DNA of 64,000 bases from Escherichia phage vB_EcoM-pEB20. Shown one piece after another: positions 7,817 through 62,340 of this stretch; position 1 is the first letter of the stretch; each line of letters opens with the position of its first letter. The translations under genes and the position numbers were made by a program. The notes beneath the pieces were generated by a model that was given only the letters and a program-made list of their open reading frames with translations, had not been told where the DNA came from and searched no databases. Location of the stretch: the sequence record OP114733; one strand, 5' to 3'.

Positions 7817-7846
7817 GTTTACAACTAAGTAGGACTATGATATAGT
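7817..7846 (+). promoter_or_regulatory. early sigma70-type promoter (GTTTAC-N18-TATAGT)
   Basis: T4 early promoter consensus; 7-bp inverted repeat AGGACTA/TAGTCCT (7831-7837 / 7846-7852) brackets the -10. Confidence 0.6.
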
Positions 7847-7872
7847 AGTCCTATCTAAAAGAGGATAACATC

Positions 7873-8136
7873 ATGAAATTTAAATTTTTCTACGCAAAAC
7901 ATAAAGTAACAGGCGAATTTGTTTCAATGTACAACACCGCAGATGACGAAGGGATGATTTATACCCATTTGGGACTATCTCATTGGGACTCAGACGTGCC
8001 TTATATGTCATCTGAAGCCGAAATAACTCGTTTAGTTAATGGACATATGAACGACCATTTTGGTGTTATTCTTTCTAAAGACCTTAAAGAGGTTATCAAC
8101 AAAGGATATATGGAACTCGCGGAAGTTGAGATATGA
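7873..8136 (+). CDS. hypothetical protein (87 aa)
   Basis: ORF with AGAGGA RBS, preceded by early promoter at 7817-7846. Confidence 0.55.
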   Translation: MKFKFFYAKHKVTGEFVSMYNTADDEGMIYTHLGLSHWDSDVPYMSSEAEITRLVNGHMNDHFGVILSKDLKEVINKGYMELAEVEI

Positions 8137-8219
8137 GCTCTAAAATGTGGATAGGAATATGGTTGCTTAGTATCCCAATGATTTGTATAATATTTTCAAT
8201 TGTGTTGAGGTACTTATGA
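8133..8219 (+). CDS. small hydrophobic peptide (28 aa)
   Basis: ATGA overlap with upstream stop; MSSKMWIGIWLLSIPMICIIFSIVLRYL is a single predicted TM helix; below ORF-track size cutoff. Confidence 0.3.
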   Translation: MSSKMWIGIWLLSIPMICIIFSIVLRYL

Positions 8220-8326
8220 AAAATGCACTTCTTATTGTACTAAGAACAATTTGTGATACGGGTTTTTACATTGCATGTTCGTTCACTGGAACATGGTTGG
8301 CTTTAACATATTTTAATGTAATTTAA
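8216..8326 (+). CDS. small hydrophobic peptide (36 aa)
   Basis: ATGA overlap with previous small ORF; hydrophobic sequence MKNALLIVLRTICDTGFYIACSFTGTWLALTYFNVI. Confidence 0.3.
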   Translation: MKNALLIVLRTICDTGFYIACSFTGTWLALTYFNVI

Positions 8327-8328
8327 TT

Positions 8329-8358
8329 GTTTACATCACGGTAGGATTATGGTATAGT
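8329..8358 (+). promoter_or_regulatory. early promoter (GTTTAC-N18-TATAGT)
   Basis: consensus match; inverted repeat GTAGGA/TCCTAC flanks the -10. Confidence 0.6.
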
Positions 8359-8386
8359 AGTCCTACTGAAACATGAGGAACACAAA

Positions 8387-8587
8387 ATGGCTAAGCTTTT
8401 TAAAGATGTTGAAATTGGTGAAAAATTTGTTCTGAATAATGGTCAGCAGCTTATTCGTGTAGCTTCTATAGCCGGACAAACTCATAACTGTATCGCCCCA
8501 ACGTGTTGGACTCGATTCTTTATTGAAGATGACACTGAATGTTTAACTGTTGAAGAGCTTTTTGAACGTTCTGATATGGCCGAATAA
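8387..8587 (+). CDS. hypothetical protein (66 aa)
   Basis: ORF with GAGGAA RBS; preceded by early promoter 8329-8358. Confidence 0.5.
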   Translation: MAKLFKDVEIGEKFVLNNGQQLIRVASIAGQTHNCIAPTCWTRFFIEDDTECLTVEELFERSDMAE

Positions 8588-8589
8588 AA

Positions 8590-8619
8590 TTGTACAAACT
8601 CTTGAGAGCAGAGTATAAT
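8590..8619 (+). promoter_or_regulatory. early promoter upstream of ndd (TTGTAC-N18-TATAAT)
   Basis: consensus match; 8-bp inverted repeat TGAGAGCA/TGCTCTCA (8603-8610 / 8620-8627) brackets the -10. Confidence 0.6.
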
Positions 8620-8663
8620 GCTCTCATGGATTACAAAAACATTAATCAATTGAGGAAATTAGC

Positions 8664-9110
8664 ATGTCCAAATATTTAACTCGTAAAGACCTTCTGGCAG
8701 TTGGTGGTGAAGTTGTTGCAGTAGTTCGTAATGGCGAATACGGTTCCGAAGTTTCTAAAGAGTTTCGTTCTCGTGAAGGTTTTTACTTCTTTGTTAAAGG
8801 TTCATCTGATTGGCGACAAGTAGCAGCACGGTTCTTTGTAGGACGTCAACGTTCTAAACAAGGGTTGGATGCAATTCTTTCTCACATTCGTCAAGGCCGT
8901 TCGCAACTAGCCCGTACCATGGGCACTAACAATATTGAATATGATGTAATCTTTGTTGCAGCTAAGAACATGAAACCACTGACCACTGGTTATGGTAAAG
9001 GTCAATTGGCTCTAGCATTCACTCGCAACCATACATCAGAATATCAAACACTCACTGAAATGAACCGTCTTCTGGCTGATAATTTCAAATTCATTCTGCA
9101 GAGTTACTAA
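8664..9110 (+). CDS. ndd: nucleoid disruption protein Ndd
   Basis: 148-aa ORF; [46 protein letters not shown]...[12 protein letters not shown] matches recalled T4 Ndd. Confidence 0.85.
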
Positions 9111-9162
9111 TTTATACAGGCCTATTAAGTTAGGCCTTTAATTTATTTTTGAGGTAATTAAA

Positions 9163-9309
9163 ATGATAGCATGGATTATTGCATTGCTGTGTTGGACATT
9201 TTTATTCGTTAGCACTTTAGTTACAGGCGAAACAACAGTATTTCAACAGGCCATATCACAAGGCACCTTAGCGGTCTTAGCTCTTCTTAACGTGTTAAAA
9301 GGCGAGTAA
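9163..9309 (+). CDS. small membrane protein (48 aa), ac/stp locus position
   Basis: Hydrophobic ORF MIAWIIALLCWTFLFVSTLV...; lies between ndd and gene 52. Confidence 0.35.
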   Translation: MIAWIIALLCWTFLFVSTLVTGETTVFQQAISQGTLAVLALLNVLKGE

Positions 9310-9449
9310 TGATTAAGAAAATCTTAGCAGGAGCCTTCGGGCTCTTGTTGTTGCTTACGGTTCTGTACTACGGTGTGATGTTTGGACTAATCCAAGTAGT
9401 GCTTTTCATTTCAGATGTTATAATGGATATTCGTTCATTAATATGGTGA
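9309..9449 (+). CDS. small membrane protein (46 aa)
   Basis: Start overlaps previous stop; hydrophobic GAFGLLLLLTVLYYGVMFGLIQVVLFI. Confidence 0.35.
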   Translation: MIKKILAGAFGLLLLLTVLYYGVMFGLIQVVLFISDVIMDIRSLIW

Positions 9450-9453
9450 AAAT

Positions 9454-10779
9454 ATGCAATTGAATTCTCGTAATCTAAAAAGTATTATTGATAACGAAGC
9501 CTTAGCATATGCGATGTACACCGTTGAAAACCGTGCAATCCCAAACATGATTGATGGATTTAAGCCGGTTCAACGTTTTGTGGTCCATCGTGCGTTAGAT
9601 TTGGCTCGTGGTAATAAAGAAAAATTTCATAAACTTGCGTCAATTGCAGGCGGTGTTGCAGATTTAGGTTATCACCATGGTGAATCTTCTGCACAAGATG
9701 CAGGTGCATTGATGGCTAACACATGGAACAACAACTATCCACTGTTAGATGGCCAAGGCAACTTTGGTTCTAGAACAGTCCAAAAAGCTGCAGCATCTCG
9801 TTATATTTTTGCTCGTGTAAGTAAAAATTTCTATAACGTATATAAAGATACTGAATATGCTCCAGCTCATGAAGATAAAGAACACGTTCCGCCAAAATTC
9901 TATCTTCCTATTATTCCGACAGTTCTTTTGAATGGCGTCTCTGGTATTGCAACCGGTTACGCAACAAATATTCTGCCTCATAGTTTTAAATCAGTCAAAA
10001 AGGCTGTATTACAAGCTCTTCAAGGTAAAAATGTCACTAAGCCAAAAGTTGAATTCCCAGAATTCCGTGGTGAAGTACATGAAGTTGATGGGCGTTATGA
10101 GATTCACGGAACATATAAGTTCACATCTCGCACTCAAATGCAGATAACTGAAATCCCATATAAATTCGACCGTGAAACGTATGTGAGTAAGGTTCTTGAC
10201 CCGTTGGAAGACAAAGGTCTAATCTCATGGGAAGATGATTGCGGTGAACACGGCTTTGGGTTTAAGGTGAAGTTCCGTAAAGAGTACTCGCTTCCTGATG
10301 ATGAAGAGCTACGTCATGAAAAAATCATGAAAGATTTTAGTCTCATCGAACGTCGTTCACAAAACATCACAGTGATTAATGAAACGGGTAAATTAGCGGT
10401 CTATGATAACGTAGTGGACTTAATCAAAGATTTTGTTGAAGTCCGTAAGACTTACGTTCAGAAACGTATTGACAACAAAATCCTTGAATCTGAAAAAGCA
10501 TTTAAACTGGCTTTTGCTAAGGCACACTTCATCAAAAAAGTTATCAACGGTGAAATTGTGATTCAGGGCAAGACTCGTAAAGCTTTGACTGAAGAGCTAG
10601 CACAAATCGAAATGTATAAAGAACATGTCGATAAACTGGTAGGTCTTAACATCTTCCATATCACTTCCGACGAAGCACGTAAACTAGCAGAAGAAGCTAA
10701 AGCTAAGAAAGAAGAAAATGAGTATTGGAAGTCTACTGATGTTGTGACAGAGTACACTAAAGACTTGGAGGCACTTTGA
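9454..10779 (+). CDS. 52: DNA topoisomerase II medium subunit (GyrA-like)
   Basis: 441-aa ORF; N-terminal region MQLNSRNLKSIIDNEALAYAMYTVENRAIPNMIDGFKPVQR matches recalled T4 gp52. Confidence 0.9.
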   Translation: MQLNSRNLKSIIDNEALAYAMYTVENRAIPNMIDGFKPVQRFVVHRALDLARGNKEKFHKLASIAGGVADLGYHHGESSAQDAGALMANTWNNNYPLLDGQGNFGSRTVQKAAASRYIFARVSKNFYNVYKDTEYAPAHEDKEHVPPKFYLPIIPTVLLNGVSGIATGYATNILPHSFKSVKKAVLQALQGKNVTKPKVEFPEFRGEVHEVDGRYEIHGTYKFTSRTQMQITEIPYKFDRETYVSKVLDPLEDKGLISWEDDCGEHGFGFKVKFRKEYSLPDDEELRHEKIMKDFSLIERRSQNITVINETGKLAVYDNVVDLIKDFVEVRKTYVQKRIDNKILESEKAFKLAFAKAHFIKKVINGEIVIQGKTRKALTEELAQIEMYKEHVDKLVGLNIFHITSDEARKLAEEAKAKKEENEYWKSTDVVTEYTKDLEAL

Positions 10780-10855
10780 GTGCCCTAGCCTTAGGATTTC
10801 TCGGTGCAATAGCTGCACTAGTGATTTGGCTGTATTTGTTGGACAAACATGATTA

Positions 10856-10875
10856 GGGAGCTTCGGCTCCCTTTT
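10856..10875 (+). terminator. intrinsic terminator GGGAGCTTCGGCTCCC + T4 after gene 52
   Basis: GC stem, UUCG loop, T-run. Confidence 0.75.
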
Positions 10876-10896
10876 GTGCATTTTTCTCACAAAACA

Positions 10897-10925
10897 GTTT
10901 ACATGTGCTTCAAACATGATATTAT
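10897..10925 (+). promoter_or_regulatory. early/middle promoter (GTTTAC-N17-TATTAT with embedded TGCTTCA MotA-like box)
   Basis: consensus match; near-identical copy at 11219-11247. Confidence 0.6.
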
Positions 10926-10970
10926 AGACCTATCAAAACAAAACAACCAAATTGGAGAAATAAAATGTCT
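10897..10970 (+). repeat. promoter/leader cassette, copy 1 of 2
   Basis: about 90 percent identical to 11219-11290 including TGCTTCAAACATGATATTATAGACCTATCAAAACAAA and GGAGAAATAAAATGTCTAAA. Confidence 0.8.
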
Positions 10971-11180
10971 AAAATGAAATTAACCCAAAACACAACTACT
11001 CGTTTCGGTAAAGTTAAACCTGGTATGAATGCTCCCCGTAAAGCACTTGTTGAAGAATTAAATTTCTTAGAAGTTGAAATCAATTCTTTAGTGGTTCGCG
11101 GTTCAAATGGTCATCATTTAGAAAAGCTTCGTTCTAAAAAGGCAAAACTTATTGGCCTTATTAAAGAAATGAGTTTGTAA
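10965..11180 (+). CDS. hypothetical basic protein (71 aa), stand-alone module
   Basis: ORF with its own promoter/leader (10897-10964) that duplicates the motA promoter/leader; GGAGAAATAAA-ATG RBS. Confidence 0.55.
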   Translation: MSKMKLTQNTTTRFGKVKPGMNAPRKALVEELNFLEVEINSLVVRGSNGHHLEKLRSKKAKLIGLIKEMSL

Positions 11181-11218
11181 ATTTTACCAGGGCTTTTGGA
11201 AAAAGAGCCCAAAATAAA

Positions 11219-11247
11219 GTTTACTTTTGCTTCAAACATGATATTAT
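11219..11247 (+). promoter_or_regulatory. early/middle promoter of motA (GTTTAC-N17-TATTAT with TGCTTCA box)
   Basis: consensus match; duplicate of 10897-10925. Confidence 0.6.
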
Positions 11248-11290
11248 AGACCTATCAAAACAAATACTAATTTGGAGAAATAAAATGTCT
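11219..11290 (+). repeat. promoter/leader cassette, copy 2 of 2 (motA)
   Basis: see 10897-10970. Confidence 0.8.
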
Positions 11291-11917
11291 AAAGTTACTT
11301 ACATCATCAAAGCTTCCGAAAACGTTCTGAATGAAAAAACTGCTGCAATAATGGTTTATATCATTAAGAACAACTTCACCACTGCTGCCAATGTCCGTGA
11401 AGCTCTGGAAGCAGAATACAATGCATCGGTTGTTAACTCTAACATTGGTGTATTGATTAAGAAAGGTTTAGTCGAAAAATCCGGTGATGGACTTGTAGCA
11501 ACAGGTGAAGCAATGGATATTATCCAAAAAGCTGCAGACCTCTTTGCCCAAGAAAATGCTCCAGAACTTCTTCAGAAACGTAACACCAGAAAAGCACGTG
11601 GAGTTACTCCTGAAATGCATGAATTAGCAAACTTTGTTTTTGAAAATATTAAAGATAAAGTTGAAGTTAAAGAAATTGGTGAAAACCGTAGTAACTTAGA
11701 AGTTCGATTTGCAAAACGAGTTCTAGGTATTCGTCAGATCGAAATTCGTCGAGATGGTTCTCTTAGAATCTTTGCATACAACATGTCAGAAACTGAATCA
11801 AAGCTGTTTACTTCTCTTGAAAATGATGTTAAGATTAAGATCGGTGGTAAATATACTTATATTGACTTCCCTAATGTGTCCAAAGAAATCATTACCCTTG
11901 TAACTAACGTACTGTGA
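11285..11917 (+). CDS. motA: middle-transcription activator MotA
   Basis: 210-aa ORF; MSKVTYIIKAS...NSNIGVLIKKGLVEKSGDGL matches recalled T4 MotA. Confidence 0.9.
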   Translation: MSKVTYIIKASENVLNEKTAAIMVYIIKNNFTTAANVREALEAEYNASVVNSNIGVLIKKGLVEKSGDGLVATGEAMDIIQKAADLFAQENAPELLQKRNTRKARGVTPEMHELANFVFENIKDKVEVKEIGENRSNLEVRFAKRVLGIRQIEIRRDGSLRIFAYNMSETESKLFTSLENDVKIKIGGKYTYIDFPNVSKEIITLVTNVL

Positions 11918-11927
11918 GGAATACATA

Positions 11928-12257
11928 ATGAATAAGCTGAATATTATTAACGAACTTCGTAAATGTGCAGAACCTACTCAGGAAGGATGGGATATTTGGT
12001 ACCACGGGGCTTATTTAGGGACAATTGTAAAGATTAAAGCAGGCCAATATACGGTTATTCGTGAAAATAATGACGCGCCATTTGGCCTTCGTAAAAACTA
12101 CATGGCAGCGATCAGTTCGTTTGTTGATACAGCTTACGAAATCTATAAAGAAGATTATAAAGAATATCAGCAGTCACAACCGGTTATTCGTTCGATTGGT
12201 GTAAATAAACAAGCACAAAAATCTATTTGGCAGCGTATTAAAGGATGGTTTAAATGA
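11928..12257 (+). CDS. hypothetical protein (109 aa)
   Basis: ORF-track ORF in the motA-asiA interval. Confidence 0.5.
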
Positions 12258-15274: not shown

Positions 15275-15296
15275 TATAAAAAGGGACCGAAGTCCC
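15275..15296 (-). terminator. hairpin GGGACTTCGGTCCC + T-run (minus strand) between genes 37 and 38
   Basis: UUCG-loop hairpin with T5 on the minus strand. Confidence 0.6.
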
Positions 15297-15302
15297 TTCT
15301 CC

Positions 15303-19191: not shown

Positions 19192-19216
19192 CAAAAATGG
19201 GAGACCGAAGTCTCCC
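19191..19216 (-). terminator. hairpin GGGAGACTTCGGTCTCCC + T-run (minus strand) after gene 35
   Basis: 8-bp stem, UUCG loop, followed on minus strand by ATTTTTG. Confidence 0.65.
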
Positions 19217-19221
19217 AAAAT

Positions 19222-27517: not shown

Positions 27518-27539
27518 GGGAGACTTCGGTCTCCCTTTT
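27518..27539 (+). terminator. intrinsic terminator GGGAGACTTCGGTCTCCC + T4 after gene 32
   Basis: 7-bp stem, UUCG loop, T-run. Confidence 0.8.
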
Positions 27540-34043: not shown

Positions 34044-34072
34044 TTTACATACCACAAGGATTGTGGTACAAT
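34043..34072 (+). promoter_or_regulatory. early promoter of rnlA (GTTTAC-N18-TACAAT)
   Basis: consensus match; 7-bp inverted repeat ACCACAA/TTGTGGT inside spacer. Confidence 0.55.
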
Positions 34073-36130: not shown

Positions 36131-36417
36131 TTAAATTAACCGCAGTTGTATTATCTATTGGTCTCCTAGTTGGATGTACTCAGGATGTGCTAGTAAGCCC
36201 TAAAGAAACTTTACATCCTTCATGGCCTACGCCTATTTCCGAATACAACCAGAAATGGCAAGTAAAGGTTATCAACGGTAATCCATGGGTTGGAATGCCA
36301 TTTGAAGACTCTCAAGAATTTCGTATCTGGTTAAACGACGTAAAAAGATATGTACATGACCAGAAGACTATGTTATGTTATTATCGTAGTGGTTTAAAAG
36401 AGGAAAAATGTCAATGA
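36127..36417 (+). CDS. o-spanin (outer-membrane lipoprotein spanin subunit)
   Basis: 96 aa; signal peptide with lipobox LVGC; ATGA-coupled to i-spanin. Confidence 0.7.
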   Translation: MIKLTAVVLSIGLLVGCTQDVLVSPKETLHPSWPTPISEYNQKWQVKVINGNPWVGMPFEDSQEFRIWLNDVKRYVHDQKTMLCYYRSGLKEEKCQ

Positions 36418-36632
36418 CTAAAGAACAGCATGAATACATTAAAGGGCTTATCTATGAATCTGAAATGGCGGCTATGATTTATGGACGCCAGATTCAACGA
36501 TTAGAATCTTTGCCTCCGACTAATGACCGTCTACTAGTTCAGTCTCGTGCTAATCTGAAAAATGAATACCAAAACAAGTGGGCAGTGGCGACTAAAGCTC
36601 TTCATGAGTATATCGAATCTTTAGTAAAATAG
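36408..36632 (+). CDS. hypothetical protein (74 aa)
   Basis: ORF overlapping o-spanin end. Confidence 0.5.
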   Translation: MSMTKEQHEYIKGLIYESEMAAMIYGRQIQRLESLPPTNDRLLVQSRANLKNEYQNKWAVATKALHEYIESLVK

Positions 36633-36662
36633 TTTACAAACTCTCGGGAGCAGAGTATAATG
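36633..36662 (+). promoter_or_regulatory. early promoter (GTTTAC-N18-TATAAT)
   Basis: consensus match; homologous to promoter at 8590 with compensatory change in stem. Confidence 0.6.
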
Positions 36663-36694
36663 CTCCTATGGATAATAAAATTGAGGAAATCTAA

Positions 36695-36993
36695 ATGAAA
36701 ACATTGTTAGAGAATTACATCAAACTATCTGATAAGTATTCTGAAATGCTCCATGCGGAAGACCGAGAAGAATATGATATGGATTTGGCTAAAGAATTGG
36801 ATGCCGCTGGTAAAGCTCTTCGTAAAGCTGCCAAAGAAAAGGGAATGGATATTCCGCAGCTAAAAAGTCATCTGTATAAATTTAACTCTTCAAATATTAG
36901 CAGATATTCTAATAACAAATCATATGCAGAACAATGTAAAGGACGGCGAGAGCATAACATTCGTATTCTTGAAACTTTCTTAGGAATAAAATA

Positions 36994-36994
<1 letters not shown>
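36695..36994 (+). CDS. hypothetical protein (99 aa)
   Basis: ORF with GAGGAAA RBS and its own early promoter. Confidence 0.55.
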
Positions 36995-38081
<1,087 letters not shown>

Positions 38082-42287: not shown

Positions 42288-42292
42288 TTTTA

Positions 42293-42314
42293 GGGAGACT
42301 TCGGTCTCCCTTTT
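42293..42314 (+). terminator. intrinsic terminator GGGAGACTTCGGTCTCCC + T4 (identical to 27518-27539)
   Basis: identical hairpin/T-run sequence reused. Confidence 0.8.
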
Positions 42315-42790: not shown

Positions 42791-42819
42791 GTTTACTTTG
42801 GTACAGGTTATGTTATTAT
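42791..42819 (+). promoter_or_regulatory. early promoter (GTTTAC-N17-TATTAT)
   Basis: consensus match; 9-bp inverted repeat GGTACAGGT/ACCTGTACC (42800-42808 / 42822-42830). Confidence 0.6.
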
Positions 42820-42860
42820 AGACCTGTACCAACAAACAACTTAAACATCTGGAGAATAAA

Positions 42861-43226: not shown

Positions 43227-43233
43227 ATTAATT

Positions 43234-43249
43234 GGGAGCTTCGGCTCCC
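43234..43249 (+). terminator. hairpin GGGAGCTTCGGCTCCC (no T-run; identical stem-loop to 10856-10871)
   Basis: UUCG-loop hairpin directly before RBS of next ORF; may be an RNA stability or processing element rather than a terminator. Confidence 0.4.
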
Positions 43250-43261
43250 ACTGAGGAAATT

Positions 43262-47377: not shown

Positions 47378-47565
47378 TGAAAGCTTATTTAGAAACAGTA
47401 ATTGTCGCTAATAAAGATGGTGGCGATGTTTCCACCTCTTGTTCCCAAATTGTATTAGATTTTCCTAATAACGATTCCTATCATATTTTTATGGACAATT
47501 TTGATAAGTACGAAAAAGGCCCTAATTTTGAAGTTTATCGTACTTTGCTCCCGATTGTGGATTAA
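47377..47565 (+). CDS. hypothetical protein (62 aa)
   Basis: TAATG-coupled to ligase stop; followed by AGAGCCTTCGGGCTCT-T4 terminator. Confidence 0.45.
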   Translation: MKAYLETVIVANKDGGDVSTSCSQIVLDFPNNDSYHIFMDNFDKYEKGPNFEVYRTLLPIVD

Positions 47566-47584
47566 GAGCCTTCGGGCTCTTTTT
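47565..47584 (+). terminator. intrinsic terminator AGAGCCTTCGGGCTCT + T4 before alt
   Basis: GC stem, UUCG loop, T-run. Confidence 0.7.
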
Positions 47585-58624: not shown

Positions 58625-58649
58625 TTTTATCTCCTAAGGGCCGAAGCCC

Positions 58650-60164
58650 TTATAAATTAATTGTTTTCATTACATAGTTAAATTTCTCATCAGCGTAACG
58701 TTGGATACGATCAATACCGTGTTTTAACAAGTAATTAAGATGAGTATACTTCTTTTTAGTATTTAATGATTTAGGTTTTACACCTGCGTCATCTATGAGA
58801 TCCCAAACTGTAGCAACAGATTTAGAACCATGCTTGCGAAGCACACGACCTACGGTTTGAAGTACGATAATTTTTGATTTAACACCATGGGCAAAAATAA
58901 CATGATGAAGATTCTTGACTGAAATACCAGTAGAGAATACTCCATATGATGCGACAATAATAATGCCTTTACCATTTTCTGCCATGACTTTAAGCGCATT
59001 ACGTGTTTCAGTATCAACTTCACCTGATACGTAATAAACTTTTTCGTATCCAAGCTCTTTAATAGCTTCAAATATTTCTTTACCGTGTGTAACGTGTTTA
59101 AACATTACAAAGGCGTTCTCGTCTTTCTTAGCCAATTTTACTGAAAGTTGAGCAATCCACTTTGTACGTCGTTTTAGTCCTGTAATAATTTTAACTTCTT
59201 CTTGGTATGTTTTACCTTTTAATTTGGTGGCGAATTCGTCTGGATAACGAAGGAAAATACTATTAATCTTAAGCTCAGTTACCTGTCCATCTTCCATTAA
59301 TTTAGACGTGCTAACAGGACGGAAGATTTCGCCGAACATACCTACGTACTGCATTACATTGGCTTTTCCGTCTCTTAATGAGCCAGATAAACCGAATTTA
59401 AACATACAATTATTTAATCCTGCGATGATTGAAGAAATACTTTTGCCTGTTGCTAAGTGGCATTCATCGTTCATCATCATACCGAACTGAGAGAACCATT
59501 CTTTAGGCTGCTTAACTACCGTTTGCCATGTGCCAACAATAATTGGAGCGTCGTTTTTAGCTCTGTCTGCTTTATCAGCGCCACCGCCAATTTTCTTAAT
59601 CATCGAATGACTAAACAAGCGATAATCAACAAAATCGTTAGCCATTTGGGTTGTCAATGCTGTTGTAGGGACGATAATGAGAATTTTACCTTCATAGTTC
59701 TCTAGATAATACCGAGCTAAAAGTGCTTGGATTAGTGATTTACCTGCTGATGTCGGAAGGTTTAAAATTCGACGACGATTAACTAGTCCTTCATATACCG
59801 CGTCTTTTTGATACCAATGTGGTTCGATTTTGGCATTGCCAGAATAAATTTCTTGTTTAGAAAGCCATGCGTCAAAATCTTCCCTGGTAAGGTCTTCGGT
59901 CTCAAAGATTTTAGGGTCAATCCATACAGAATAACTCATATTGTTACAGAACTTTTTTATTTGTCCTACAAGTCCATATGGTAACAAACGGTTGTAATCT
60001 AAAAGTCGAATTCTACCATCCCATTGCCCGTAGCGATATTTTGGGTTAAATTTATACCCGTCAGCTTCAAAGCTAAAAAAGTCACGAAGTTCGTAAAACG
60101 TACTTTCGTCGCATTCAATGCGCACGTGACTAAAATCATAAAAATGTACTTTAATGTCAGTCAT
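58650..60164 (-). CDS. uvsW: UvsW SF2 DNA/RNA helicase
   Basis: 504-aa ORF; Walker A TSAGKS and DECH box (MMNDECHLATG). Confidence 0.9.
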   Translation of the reverse strand: MTDIKVHFYDFSHVRIECDESTFYELRDFFSFEADGYKFNPKYRYGQWDGRIRLLDYNRLLPYGLVGQIKKFCNNMSYSVWIDPKIFETEDLTREDFDAWLSKQEIYSGNAKIEPHWYQKDAVYEGLVNRRRILNLPTSAGKSLIQALLARYYLENYEGKILIIVPTTALTTQMANDFVDYRLFSHSMIKKIGGGADKADRAKNDAPIIVGTWQTVVKQPKEWFSQFGMMMNDECHLATGKSISSIIAGLNNCMFKFGLSGSLRDGKANVMQYVGMFGEIFRPVSTSKLMEDGQVTELKINSIFLRYPDEFATKLKGKTYQEEVKIITGLKRRTKWIAQLSVKLAKKDENAFVMFKHVTHGKEIFEAIKELGYEKVYYVSGEVDTETRNALKVMAENGKGIIIVASYGVFSTGISVKNLHHVIFAHGVKSKIIVLQTVGRVLRKHGSKSVATVWDLIDDAGVKPKSLNTKKKYTHLNYLLKHGIDRIQRYADEKFNYVMKTINL

Positions 60165-62311: not shown

Positions 62312-62317
62312 TCGTAA

Positions 62318-62340
62318 GGGGCCGAAGCCCCTTTCTTCGT
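62318..62340 (+). terminator. hairpin GGGGCCGAAGCCCC + T-rich tract after hoc
   Basis: GC stem with GAAG loop followed by TTTCTTCGTTTTT. Confidence 0.6.

Follow-up and report, generated by a model that had tools for sequence, protein, structure and literature searches.

Promoter-early stem-loops (PeSLs), described by Arbiol et al. (2010, PMC2839356) and Comeau et al. (2014, PMC4122927), are intergenic modules that run from an upstream stop codon to the next start codon, carry a sigma70-like early promoter preceded by AT-rich DNA and end in a Shine-Dalgarno sequence and ATG. Their stems contain G.T pairs, they cluster among small non-essential ORFs and they are associated with indels between related phages. 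PeSL promoters are very strong, and PeSL-flanked genes excise as mini-circles (PMC2839356; PMC4122927). A common subclass in which the stem overlaps the -10 box was described in RB49/phi1 (PMC2839356), and the PeSL211/210 stem-loop, of the RB49/phi1 type, cut downstream lacZ expression as strongly as rrnB T1 (PMC2839356; PMC4122927). That published terminator assay concerned a different stem from those considered here, with a G-run and a C-run (PMC2839356). We found no formal covariation or strand-bias analysis in either paper (PMC2839356; PMC4122927), and the 2010 text does not use the word 'compensatory'; PeSLs go unmentioned in the T4 transcription review, and our literature search found no T4 transcript-end map.

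Here, we describe two homologous promoter cassettes in a 64,000-nt stretch of Escherichia phage vB_EcoM-pEB20 (sequence record OP114733; the window, below), one upstream of ndd and the other upstream of a 99-aa ORF. Both are members of the published PeSL class, and the element is therefore not new; our interest lies in the hairpin that each promoter encodes, in the evidence that its pairing has been kept and in the RNA on which it may act.

Two promoter cassettes with an embedded hairpin

Around both cassettes, every gene lies on the + strand. Copy 1 sits in a 4-kb region (8000–12000) with 98–99% identity to Mosigvirus (RB69-like) coliphages, such as APCEc01, JS09 and HX01, and starts directly 3' of the TAA stop codon (8585–8587, + strand) of a 66-aa ORF (8387–8587). 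Its -35 hexamer, TGTACA (8591–8596, + strand; a consensus match only), is followed by a 17-nt spacer. The 5' arm of the hairpin, TGAGAGC (8603–8609, + strand), lies within that spacer at about -24 to -18; the loop, AGAGTATAAT (8610–8619, + strand), holds the -10 box TATAAT (8614–8619); and the 3' arm, GCTCTCA (8620–8626, + strand), spans the discriminator (-6 to -1) and the start site, placed at A8626 by its spacing from the -10 box. The Shine-Dalgarno block ATTGAGGAAAT (8649–8659) then leads to the ATG at 8664 of ndd (8664–9110), block and start codon together occupying 8649–8666 on the + strand. Directly 3' of the ndd stop codon, and 5' of the ac gene, lies a terminator-like hairpin (9118–9137), AGGCCTA-ttaagt-TAGGCCT, followed by TTAATTTATTTTT.

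Copy 2 (36633–36694, + strand) belongs to the pseT stretch, for which the best database match reaches only ~91% identity, as against ~99% for the ndd region. The TAG stop codon (36630–36632, + strand) of the pseT.1 homologue (36408–36632) abuts its -35 hexamer, TTTACA (36633–36638, + strand), which is separated by a 17-nt spacer from the -10 box TATAAT (36656–36661) in the loop AGAGTATAAT (36652–36661, + strand). The arms are CGGGAGC (36645–36651, + strand) and GCTCCTA (36662–36668, + strand), with a predicted start site at A36668, and the Shine-Dalgarno block ATTGAGGAAAT (36680–36690) precedes the ATG at 36695 of the 99-aa ORF (36695–36994; block and start codon, 36680–36697, + strand), the orthologue of AR1 ar1_230. 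Ndd and the product of the 99-aa ORF are unrelated proteins.

Compared with phage AR1, the whole of copy 2 amounts to 62 inserted nucleotides. At the orthologous AR1 site the flanking genes overlap by ATGA and there is zero intergenic DNA, the AR1 orthologues sharing 82% and 57% protein identity with the genes in the window. Because the cassette is missing between these orthologues, copy 2 is either a 62-nt gain or a sequence lost in AR1; it is missing at the corresponding T4 junction too. A 63-aa ORF (36994–37185) lies between the 99-aa ORF and pseT, and T4 has neither ORF; homology to AR1-type phages ends at ~36996.

In their architecture, both copies carry the published PeSL features. The matches to a sigma70-like early promoter read TGTACA-17-TATAAT after the AT-rich GAATAAAAT in copy 1 and TTTACA-17-TATAAT after GTAAAATAG in copy 2 (sequence match only), and a stable 6–7-bp stem encloses the -10 box, as in the -10-overlap subclass. 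The modules fill the space from stop to start (TAA 8585–8587 to ATG 8664; TAG 36630–36632 to ATG 36695), they recur in the genome, in clusters among small non-essential ORFs of hyperplastic regions, and they are linked to gene insertion, deletion or replacement between related phages. Searching the Rfam 15 families gave no match at gathering score anywhere in the 64-kb window.

The cassette sequences, Shine-Dalgarno block and ATG quoted in an initial annotation of this DNA, and the homology that it proposed between the copies, agree exactly with the window. The core 18-mer GAGCAGAGTATAATGCTC occurs exactly twice, against 0.02 occurrences expected by chance, and a short-word BLAST search of the window for further diverged paralogues of this cassette subfamily returned only the two copies. 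Their 39-nt cores differ at four positions, all transitions and all within the stem arms (P = 0.012 for this placement). Going from copy 1 to copy 2, two of the four differences turn pair 3 from A-T into G-C (A8605-T8624 becoming G36647-C36666), exactly the exchange that the initial annotation had noticed; the others change pair 2 from G-C to G.T and the outermost pair from T-A to C.A, where pairing is broken. In simulations, four random changes in 39 nt produced at least one compensatory pair with a probability of 0.056 for transitions and 0.019 for any substitution, and the chance rose to 0.44 when all four changes were conditioned to fall in the stem. With chance levels of 0.02–0.06 (0.44 conditioned on the stem), the two-copy evidence is only borderline. 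The exchange had been read as direct covariation evidence for selected pairing: the single change is weak by itself, and the maintained pairing holds up on other grounds, as the case for it is carried by the broader alignment and not by the two copies.

Covariation across the cassette family

We searched viral contigs with patterns in which the promoter and loop bases were fixed and the stem was left as N, and we added BLAST hits from annotated phages. BLAST matched the cassette at 1,311 places in 716 records, and the stem-agnostic scans and BLAST together gave ~18 distinct stems from T4, AR1, JS98, Bp7, Kanagawavirus and uncultured T4-like phages. Examples include TGAGAGC/GCTCTCA, CAGGAGC/GCTCCTA, TGGGACC/GGTCCCA and TGGGAGT/ACTCCCA, along with TGGGGTC/GACCCCA, TGAGGAC/GTCCTCC and AGAGGAC/GTCCTCA.

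For the covariation alignment, members were picked on non-stem columns only, and two unrelated control sequences were kept in. In this alignment of related T4-like copies, which had been suggested as a check on the two-copy observation, 92.3% of cells are paired and six of the seven pairs show double changes. Stem variation that does not preserve complementarity, the outcome that would speak against maintained pairing, was looked for in the same alignment, and the opposite was seen. The covariation score is 0.567, compared with 0.27 in shuffles, and none of 500 shuffles reaches 0.567, a control that overstates significance because the sequences share ancestry. Sliding the 3' partner by 1–3 columns lowers pairing to 37–50%, and RNAalifold independently predicts the same helix plus a closing A-U pair. 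Across the 18 stems, pairs 2–7 comprise 100 Watson-Crick and 8 G.T pairs and are free of A.C and of any other mismatch. Pairing at the outermost position is marginal.

Unrelated promoters and phage sequences that match the same pattern pair at background level only. A scan of metagenomes with the stem-agnostic pattern, used as a background control, brought up one new T4-like stem and many unrelated AT-rich promoters among the matches listed. The 'non-stem distance' criterion separates family members imperfectly, since the search pattern itself fixes many of those columns. Taken together, these data support the conclusion that stem pairing is conserved across several genera of T4-like phages. 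The covariation is evidence that pairing has been maintained, to which templated mutation in inverted repeats could contribute.

Conservation across the cassette family, seen in several genera, extends to two stretches that belong to neither the hexamers nor the stem: AAACTCT in the 5' part of the spacer (8596–8602 and 36639–36644), and the presumed first transcribed bases, TGGAT, CGGAT or TGGAG (8627–8631 and 36669–36673).

The cassette is also portable. Across phages it stands upstream of at least 10 different genes (ndd, motB, e.6, 55.2, the 99-aa ORF and at least five others): before motB in T4, pSs-1 and JoYop; before e.6 in AR1, Bp7 and PSD9; before 55.2 in JS98; before ndd in Kanagawavirus KLB31; and before several other genes in uncultured T4-like contigs.

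Strand bias and predicted transcripts

The predicted hairpin in the sense RNA has a free energy of -14.6 kcal/mol in copy 1 (z = -4.2) and -12.2 kcal/mol in copy 2 (z = -2.4), and with the -35 and -10 hexamers fixed during shuffling the z-scores are -4.1 and -3.0, respectively. On the antisense strand, copy 1 folds at -14.0 kcal/mol and copy 2 at -9.5 kcal/mol (z = -1.55). The loop is long, at 10 nt, or 8 nt if the closing A-U pair is counted. A sense G.T pair is an A.C mismatch on the other strand, so a bias toward G.T is not expected from a cruciform or a symmetric protein site. When the two cassette families that we recognize in the window are combined (the second is described below), at least seven separate G.T events stand against one interior A.C event (P ~0.035, from few independent events), an excess that is suggestive of selection on the sense-strand RNA.

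The usual spacing from the -10 box would place the start of the embedded promoter's transcript on the final base of the 3' arm, a purine (A or G) in 16 of 18 stems. Such a start would leave the promoter's own transcript without the hairpin, so that only RNA reading through from upstream would carry it.

Hairpins at other early promoters in the window

Of ten plausible early promoters in intergenic DNA of the window, nine have a hairpin, which either lies within the promoter or forms a separate element just upstream. The promoter-embedded hairpins at 7818, 8330 and 8591 fall within 800 bp, each before a small ORF, and others lie at 34044, 36633 and 42792. Three early-promoter-like sites besides the two copies have a significant hairpin around the -10 box, namely 7818–7853 (TAGGACT/AGTCCTA), 8330–8368 (TAGGATT/AGTCCTA) and 42792–42832 (GGTACAGGT/ACCTGTACC); at a fourth, 34044–34068, the stem ACCACAA/TTGTGGT lies inside the spacer. 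Shuffles with fixed hexamers gave z-scores of -3 to -6 for the 7818, 8330, 42792 and 34044 sites and both copies.

The sites at 7818 and 8330 belong to a second cassette family, TTTACA-N13-ATGRTATAGT, with the same geometry and covariation. Its stem-agnostic scan is bimodal, random matches pairing at ~3 of 7 positions and T4-like members at 7 of 7, and its covarying stems include CAAGACT/AGTCTTG and TAAGAGC/GCTCTTA. The promoters that have no embedded stem (10898, 11220 and 27567) are preceded by a separate hairpin just upstream, which in two cases is a canonical UUCG-tetraloop terminator with a T-run. The presence of a hairpin at nearly every early promoter junction, in a flexible position, suggests that it serves the transcript boundary rather than promoter mechanics.

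Several features of the window border on this subject. GC-rich TTCG-tetraloop hairpins of 7–8 bp lie on the + strand at 2375–2392, 10855–10872, 27518–27535, 42292–42311 and 47564–47581, and CGAA-loop hairpins (UUCG on the - strand) lie at 15281–15298, 19198–19217, 58635–58652 and 62316–62333; most of them are followed by a T-run and resemble canonical intrinsic terminators. Those at 10855 and 27518 precede, by 26–32 nt, early promoters in which no stem is embedded. At 43233–43250, the hairpin TGGGAGC-TTCG-GCTCCCA has no promoter and runs straight into ACTGAGGAAATTATG, a Shine-Dalgarno sequence and start codon; its stem is the same as that of several promoter-cassette family members, and it may be related to the cassette stem or left over from it. 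Two near-identical promoter-to-start-codon cassettes of another family (10898–10985 and 11220–11305) lie 320 bp apart with the pattern TTTACa/t-tgcttcaaacatga-TATTAT-agacctatcaaaacaaa...ggagaaataaaATGtct, and the promoter at 42792 has its TATTATagacct part in common with them.

Discussion

We propose, with a probability of roughly 0.7, that these cassettes are portable PeSL-type early-expression modules whose hairpin acts on read-through RNA as a cistron boundary. Each module fills the gap from the stop codon of a small early gene to the next start codon and supplies a Shine-Dalgarno block and an early promoter of the sigma70 type. Where the promoter sequence is free to vary, in the discriminator to +1 and at about -24 to -18 in the spacer (its 3' part), it encodes the 6–7-bp arms of a hairpin with the -10 box in its loop, and this hairpin would form only in RNA from promoters further upstream, 12–15 nt 3' of the upstream stop codon. 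There it could act as a weak attenuator or pause site, as a barrier to 3' exonucleases that protects the upstream message, or as both, after which the embedded promoter would re-initiate expression of the next gene. The conserved module would also offer ~40–70 nt of homology for the gain, loss or swap of genes.

We also considered an intrinsic terminator and rejected it: the loop is 8–10 nt long, the stem is followed by a tail, TGGATTACAAAAAC or TGGATAATAAAA, that contains no U-run, and a consensus scan of the + strand was negative. The sequence UGGAUUACAAAAAC after the stem likewise contains no T-run and was not terminator-like on the + strand, and since canonical UUCG terminators with T-runs exist elsewhere in the genome, strong intrinsic termination is unlikely here. 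A bolder version, which we regard as doubtful, is that U-run-less hairpins with the -10 box in the loop form a distinct signal, confined to read-through (delayed-early) RNA, and are not terminators at all. If this were true, one gene would give rise to two mRNA species, read-through and immediate-early, with different fates, whether through stability of the upstream cistron, a processed 5' end or a pause that prevents promoter occlusion by incoming polymerases. The sigma70 spacer and discriminator would then co-evolve through RNA made from other promoters, which could explain part of the 'extra consensus' of T4 early promoters (PMC2988021).

Complementary arms could also be kept for reasons that lie in the DNA. 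The inverted repeat might form a cruciform or hairpin that helps the promoter open or regulates this step, serve as a symmetric site at which a dimeric protein of phage or host shuts off early promoters, or present a target to a structure-specific nuclease that stimulates recombination; its arms do occupy sensitive promoter DNA (discriminator and spacer) and bracket the -10 box exactly, in copy 1 the antisense strand folds nearly as well as the sense strand (-14.0 kcal/mol), and PeSLs are recombination sites (PMC2839356). Yet the stems are nearly all different between families (GAGAGC, TAGGACT, GGTACAGGT) with pairing kept, which argues against sequence-specific protein recognition; the sense-strand mismatches in pairs 2–7 are G.T in eight cases and A.C in none, although a cruciform or symmetric site would treat both alike; copy 2 folds weakly on the antisense strand (-9.5 kcal/mol, z = -1.55); and hairpins that lie outside the promoter elsewhere in the same genome indicate that promoter mechanics do not need one. 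We therefore consider a DNA-level role quite improbable. We would give similarly long odds to complementarity that arose by mutation instead of selection, through quasi-palindrome template switching or gene conversion between cassettes. T4 is the phage in which templated mutation at quasi-palindromes was first described, and the cassettes have clearly been exchanged between loci. Template switching can both create and maintain hairpin complementarity (PMC8794818), but it would give perfect complements in one step, whereas stepwise G.T intermediates occur at four pairs. Nor would it account easily for the lack of non-wobble mismatches in 108 interior cells from several genera or for two unrelated stem families with the same geometry, and it would leave the hairpin at nearly every early promoter junction unexplained.

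Two other explanations place the hairpin in RNA, as we do, and differ in what it does there. It might mark read-through RNA for different translation or decay, for example by changing access to the downstream Shine-Dalgarno sequence or by leaving a protective 5' stem after RNase E cleavage. From the predicted start site, only read-through RNA would carry the hairpin, and its 3' arm (UCUCA or CUCCU) is complementary to the Shine-Dalgarno GAGG. There is also a parallel in gene e, soc, 49 and I-TevI, where transcripts from the late promoter begin within the stem and thereby avoid a block. For gene e of T4-related phages, a stem-loop keeps the early transcript from being translated, and the region encoding its 5' strand contains a late promoter (PMC3014915). 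Against such marking, the hairpin keeps no constant distance from the translation start region, its end lying 22 nt in copy 1, 11 nt in copy 2 and 5 nt in L006 from the Shine-Dalgarno block, and the predicted Shine-Dalgarno accessibility with the native as compared with a scrambled 5' arm moves in opposite directions in the two copies (0.51 vs 0.23 and 0.16 vs 0.35). Sequestration of the Shine-Dalgarno sequence by the 3' arm was dropped on account of these opposite shifts, and marking as a whole seems to us an improbable role. Least credible of all is that the hairpin terminates antisense transcription, for instance of late transcripts that enter the early region from the opposite direction. 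The minus strand after the stem does read AGAGTTTGTACAATTTT, a T-rich stretch complementary to the -35 and UP region, and the scan called a sister element (7853–7830) terminator-like on the minus strand; however, each sense G.T pair becomes an A.C mismatch in antisense RNA, the T-run is interrupted and begins 4–5 nt past the stem, and the scan was negative for both 8626–8603 and 36668–36645.

A cistron boundary on read-through RNA thus remains the reading that we prefer. More broadly, these cassettes illustrate how the free positions of promoter DNA can carry a second, RNA-level code. Their stems have been kept paired across several T4-like genera, probably as sense-strand RNA, and this pairing was confirmed with unbiased sampling and controls. 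PeSLs are a very common phage regulatory module, and the published 'terminator' label misfits their U-run-less subclass. In practical terms, the cassettes are portable, compact expression modules, and they mark likely recombination breakpoints in phage genomes.

Comparison with known systems

Like the cassette hairpins, the canonical terminators of T4-like phages, often with C(UUCG)G, place a GC-rich stem on the sense strand immediately behind a stop codon, and some tetraloop hairpins in the window use the identical stem GGGAGC-TTCG-GCTCCC (10855–10872 and 43233–43250). Some of them stand 25–32 nt before early promoters without an embedded stem. They differ in having mostly a 4-nt loop and a T-run, with 43233–43250 as the exception, whereas the embedded hairpins have an 8–10-nt loop that holds the -10 box and have no T-run.

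The intercistronic hairpins of REP-type 3' stabilisers in polycistronic bacterial mRNA lack a T-run, lie just after a stop codon and could block 3'-to-5' exonucleases. There is no sequence relationship between them and the cassette, REP elements are not known to overlap a promoter and the corresponding role of the cassette is putative.

The hairpins of T4 gene e, soc, 49 and I-TevI (PMC3014915) share with the cassettes a promoter inside the DNA that encodes the hairpin, so that upstream and internal transcripts differ in structure. In the T4 genes, the Shine-Dalgarno sequence and AUG are sequestered by the hairpin, from which the internal late promoter removes only the 5' arm. In the cassettes, by contrast, both arms lie upstream of the predicted start, the translation start is outside the stem and the promoter is of the early sigma70 type. 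A translational hairpin of the gene e, soc or 49 type was rejected here, because 22, 11 or 5 nt separate the stem from the Shine-Dalgarno sequence, which it does not sequester.

PeSLs are the closest relatives. The published sets come from RB49/phi1 (with G-run/C-run stems), T4/PST and KVP40/nt-1, and the cassettes described here add Mosigvirus (RB69-like). The stems figured for PST are described there as just upstream of the promoter, in contrast to the arms that enclose the -10 box in both copies, and the 'terminator' part of the PeSL description is unsupported for these two copies, in which no T-run follows the stem. What sets this family apart within the class is its AGAGTATAAT loop, and the T4 motB promoter is one of its members.
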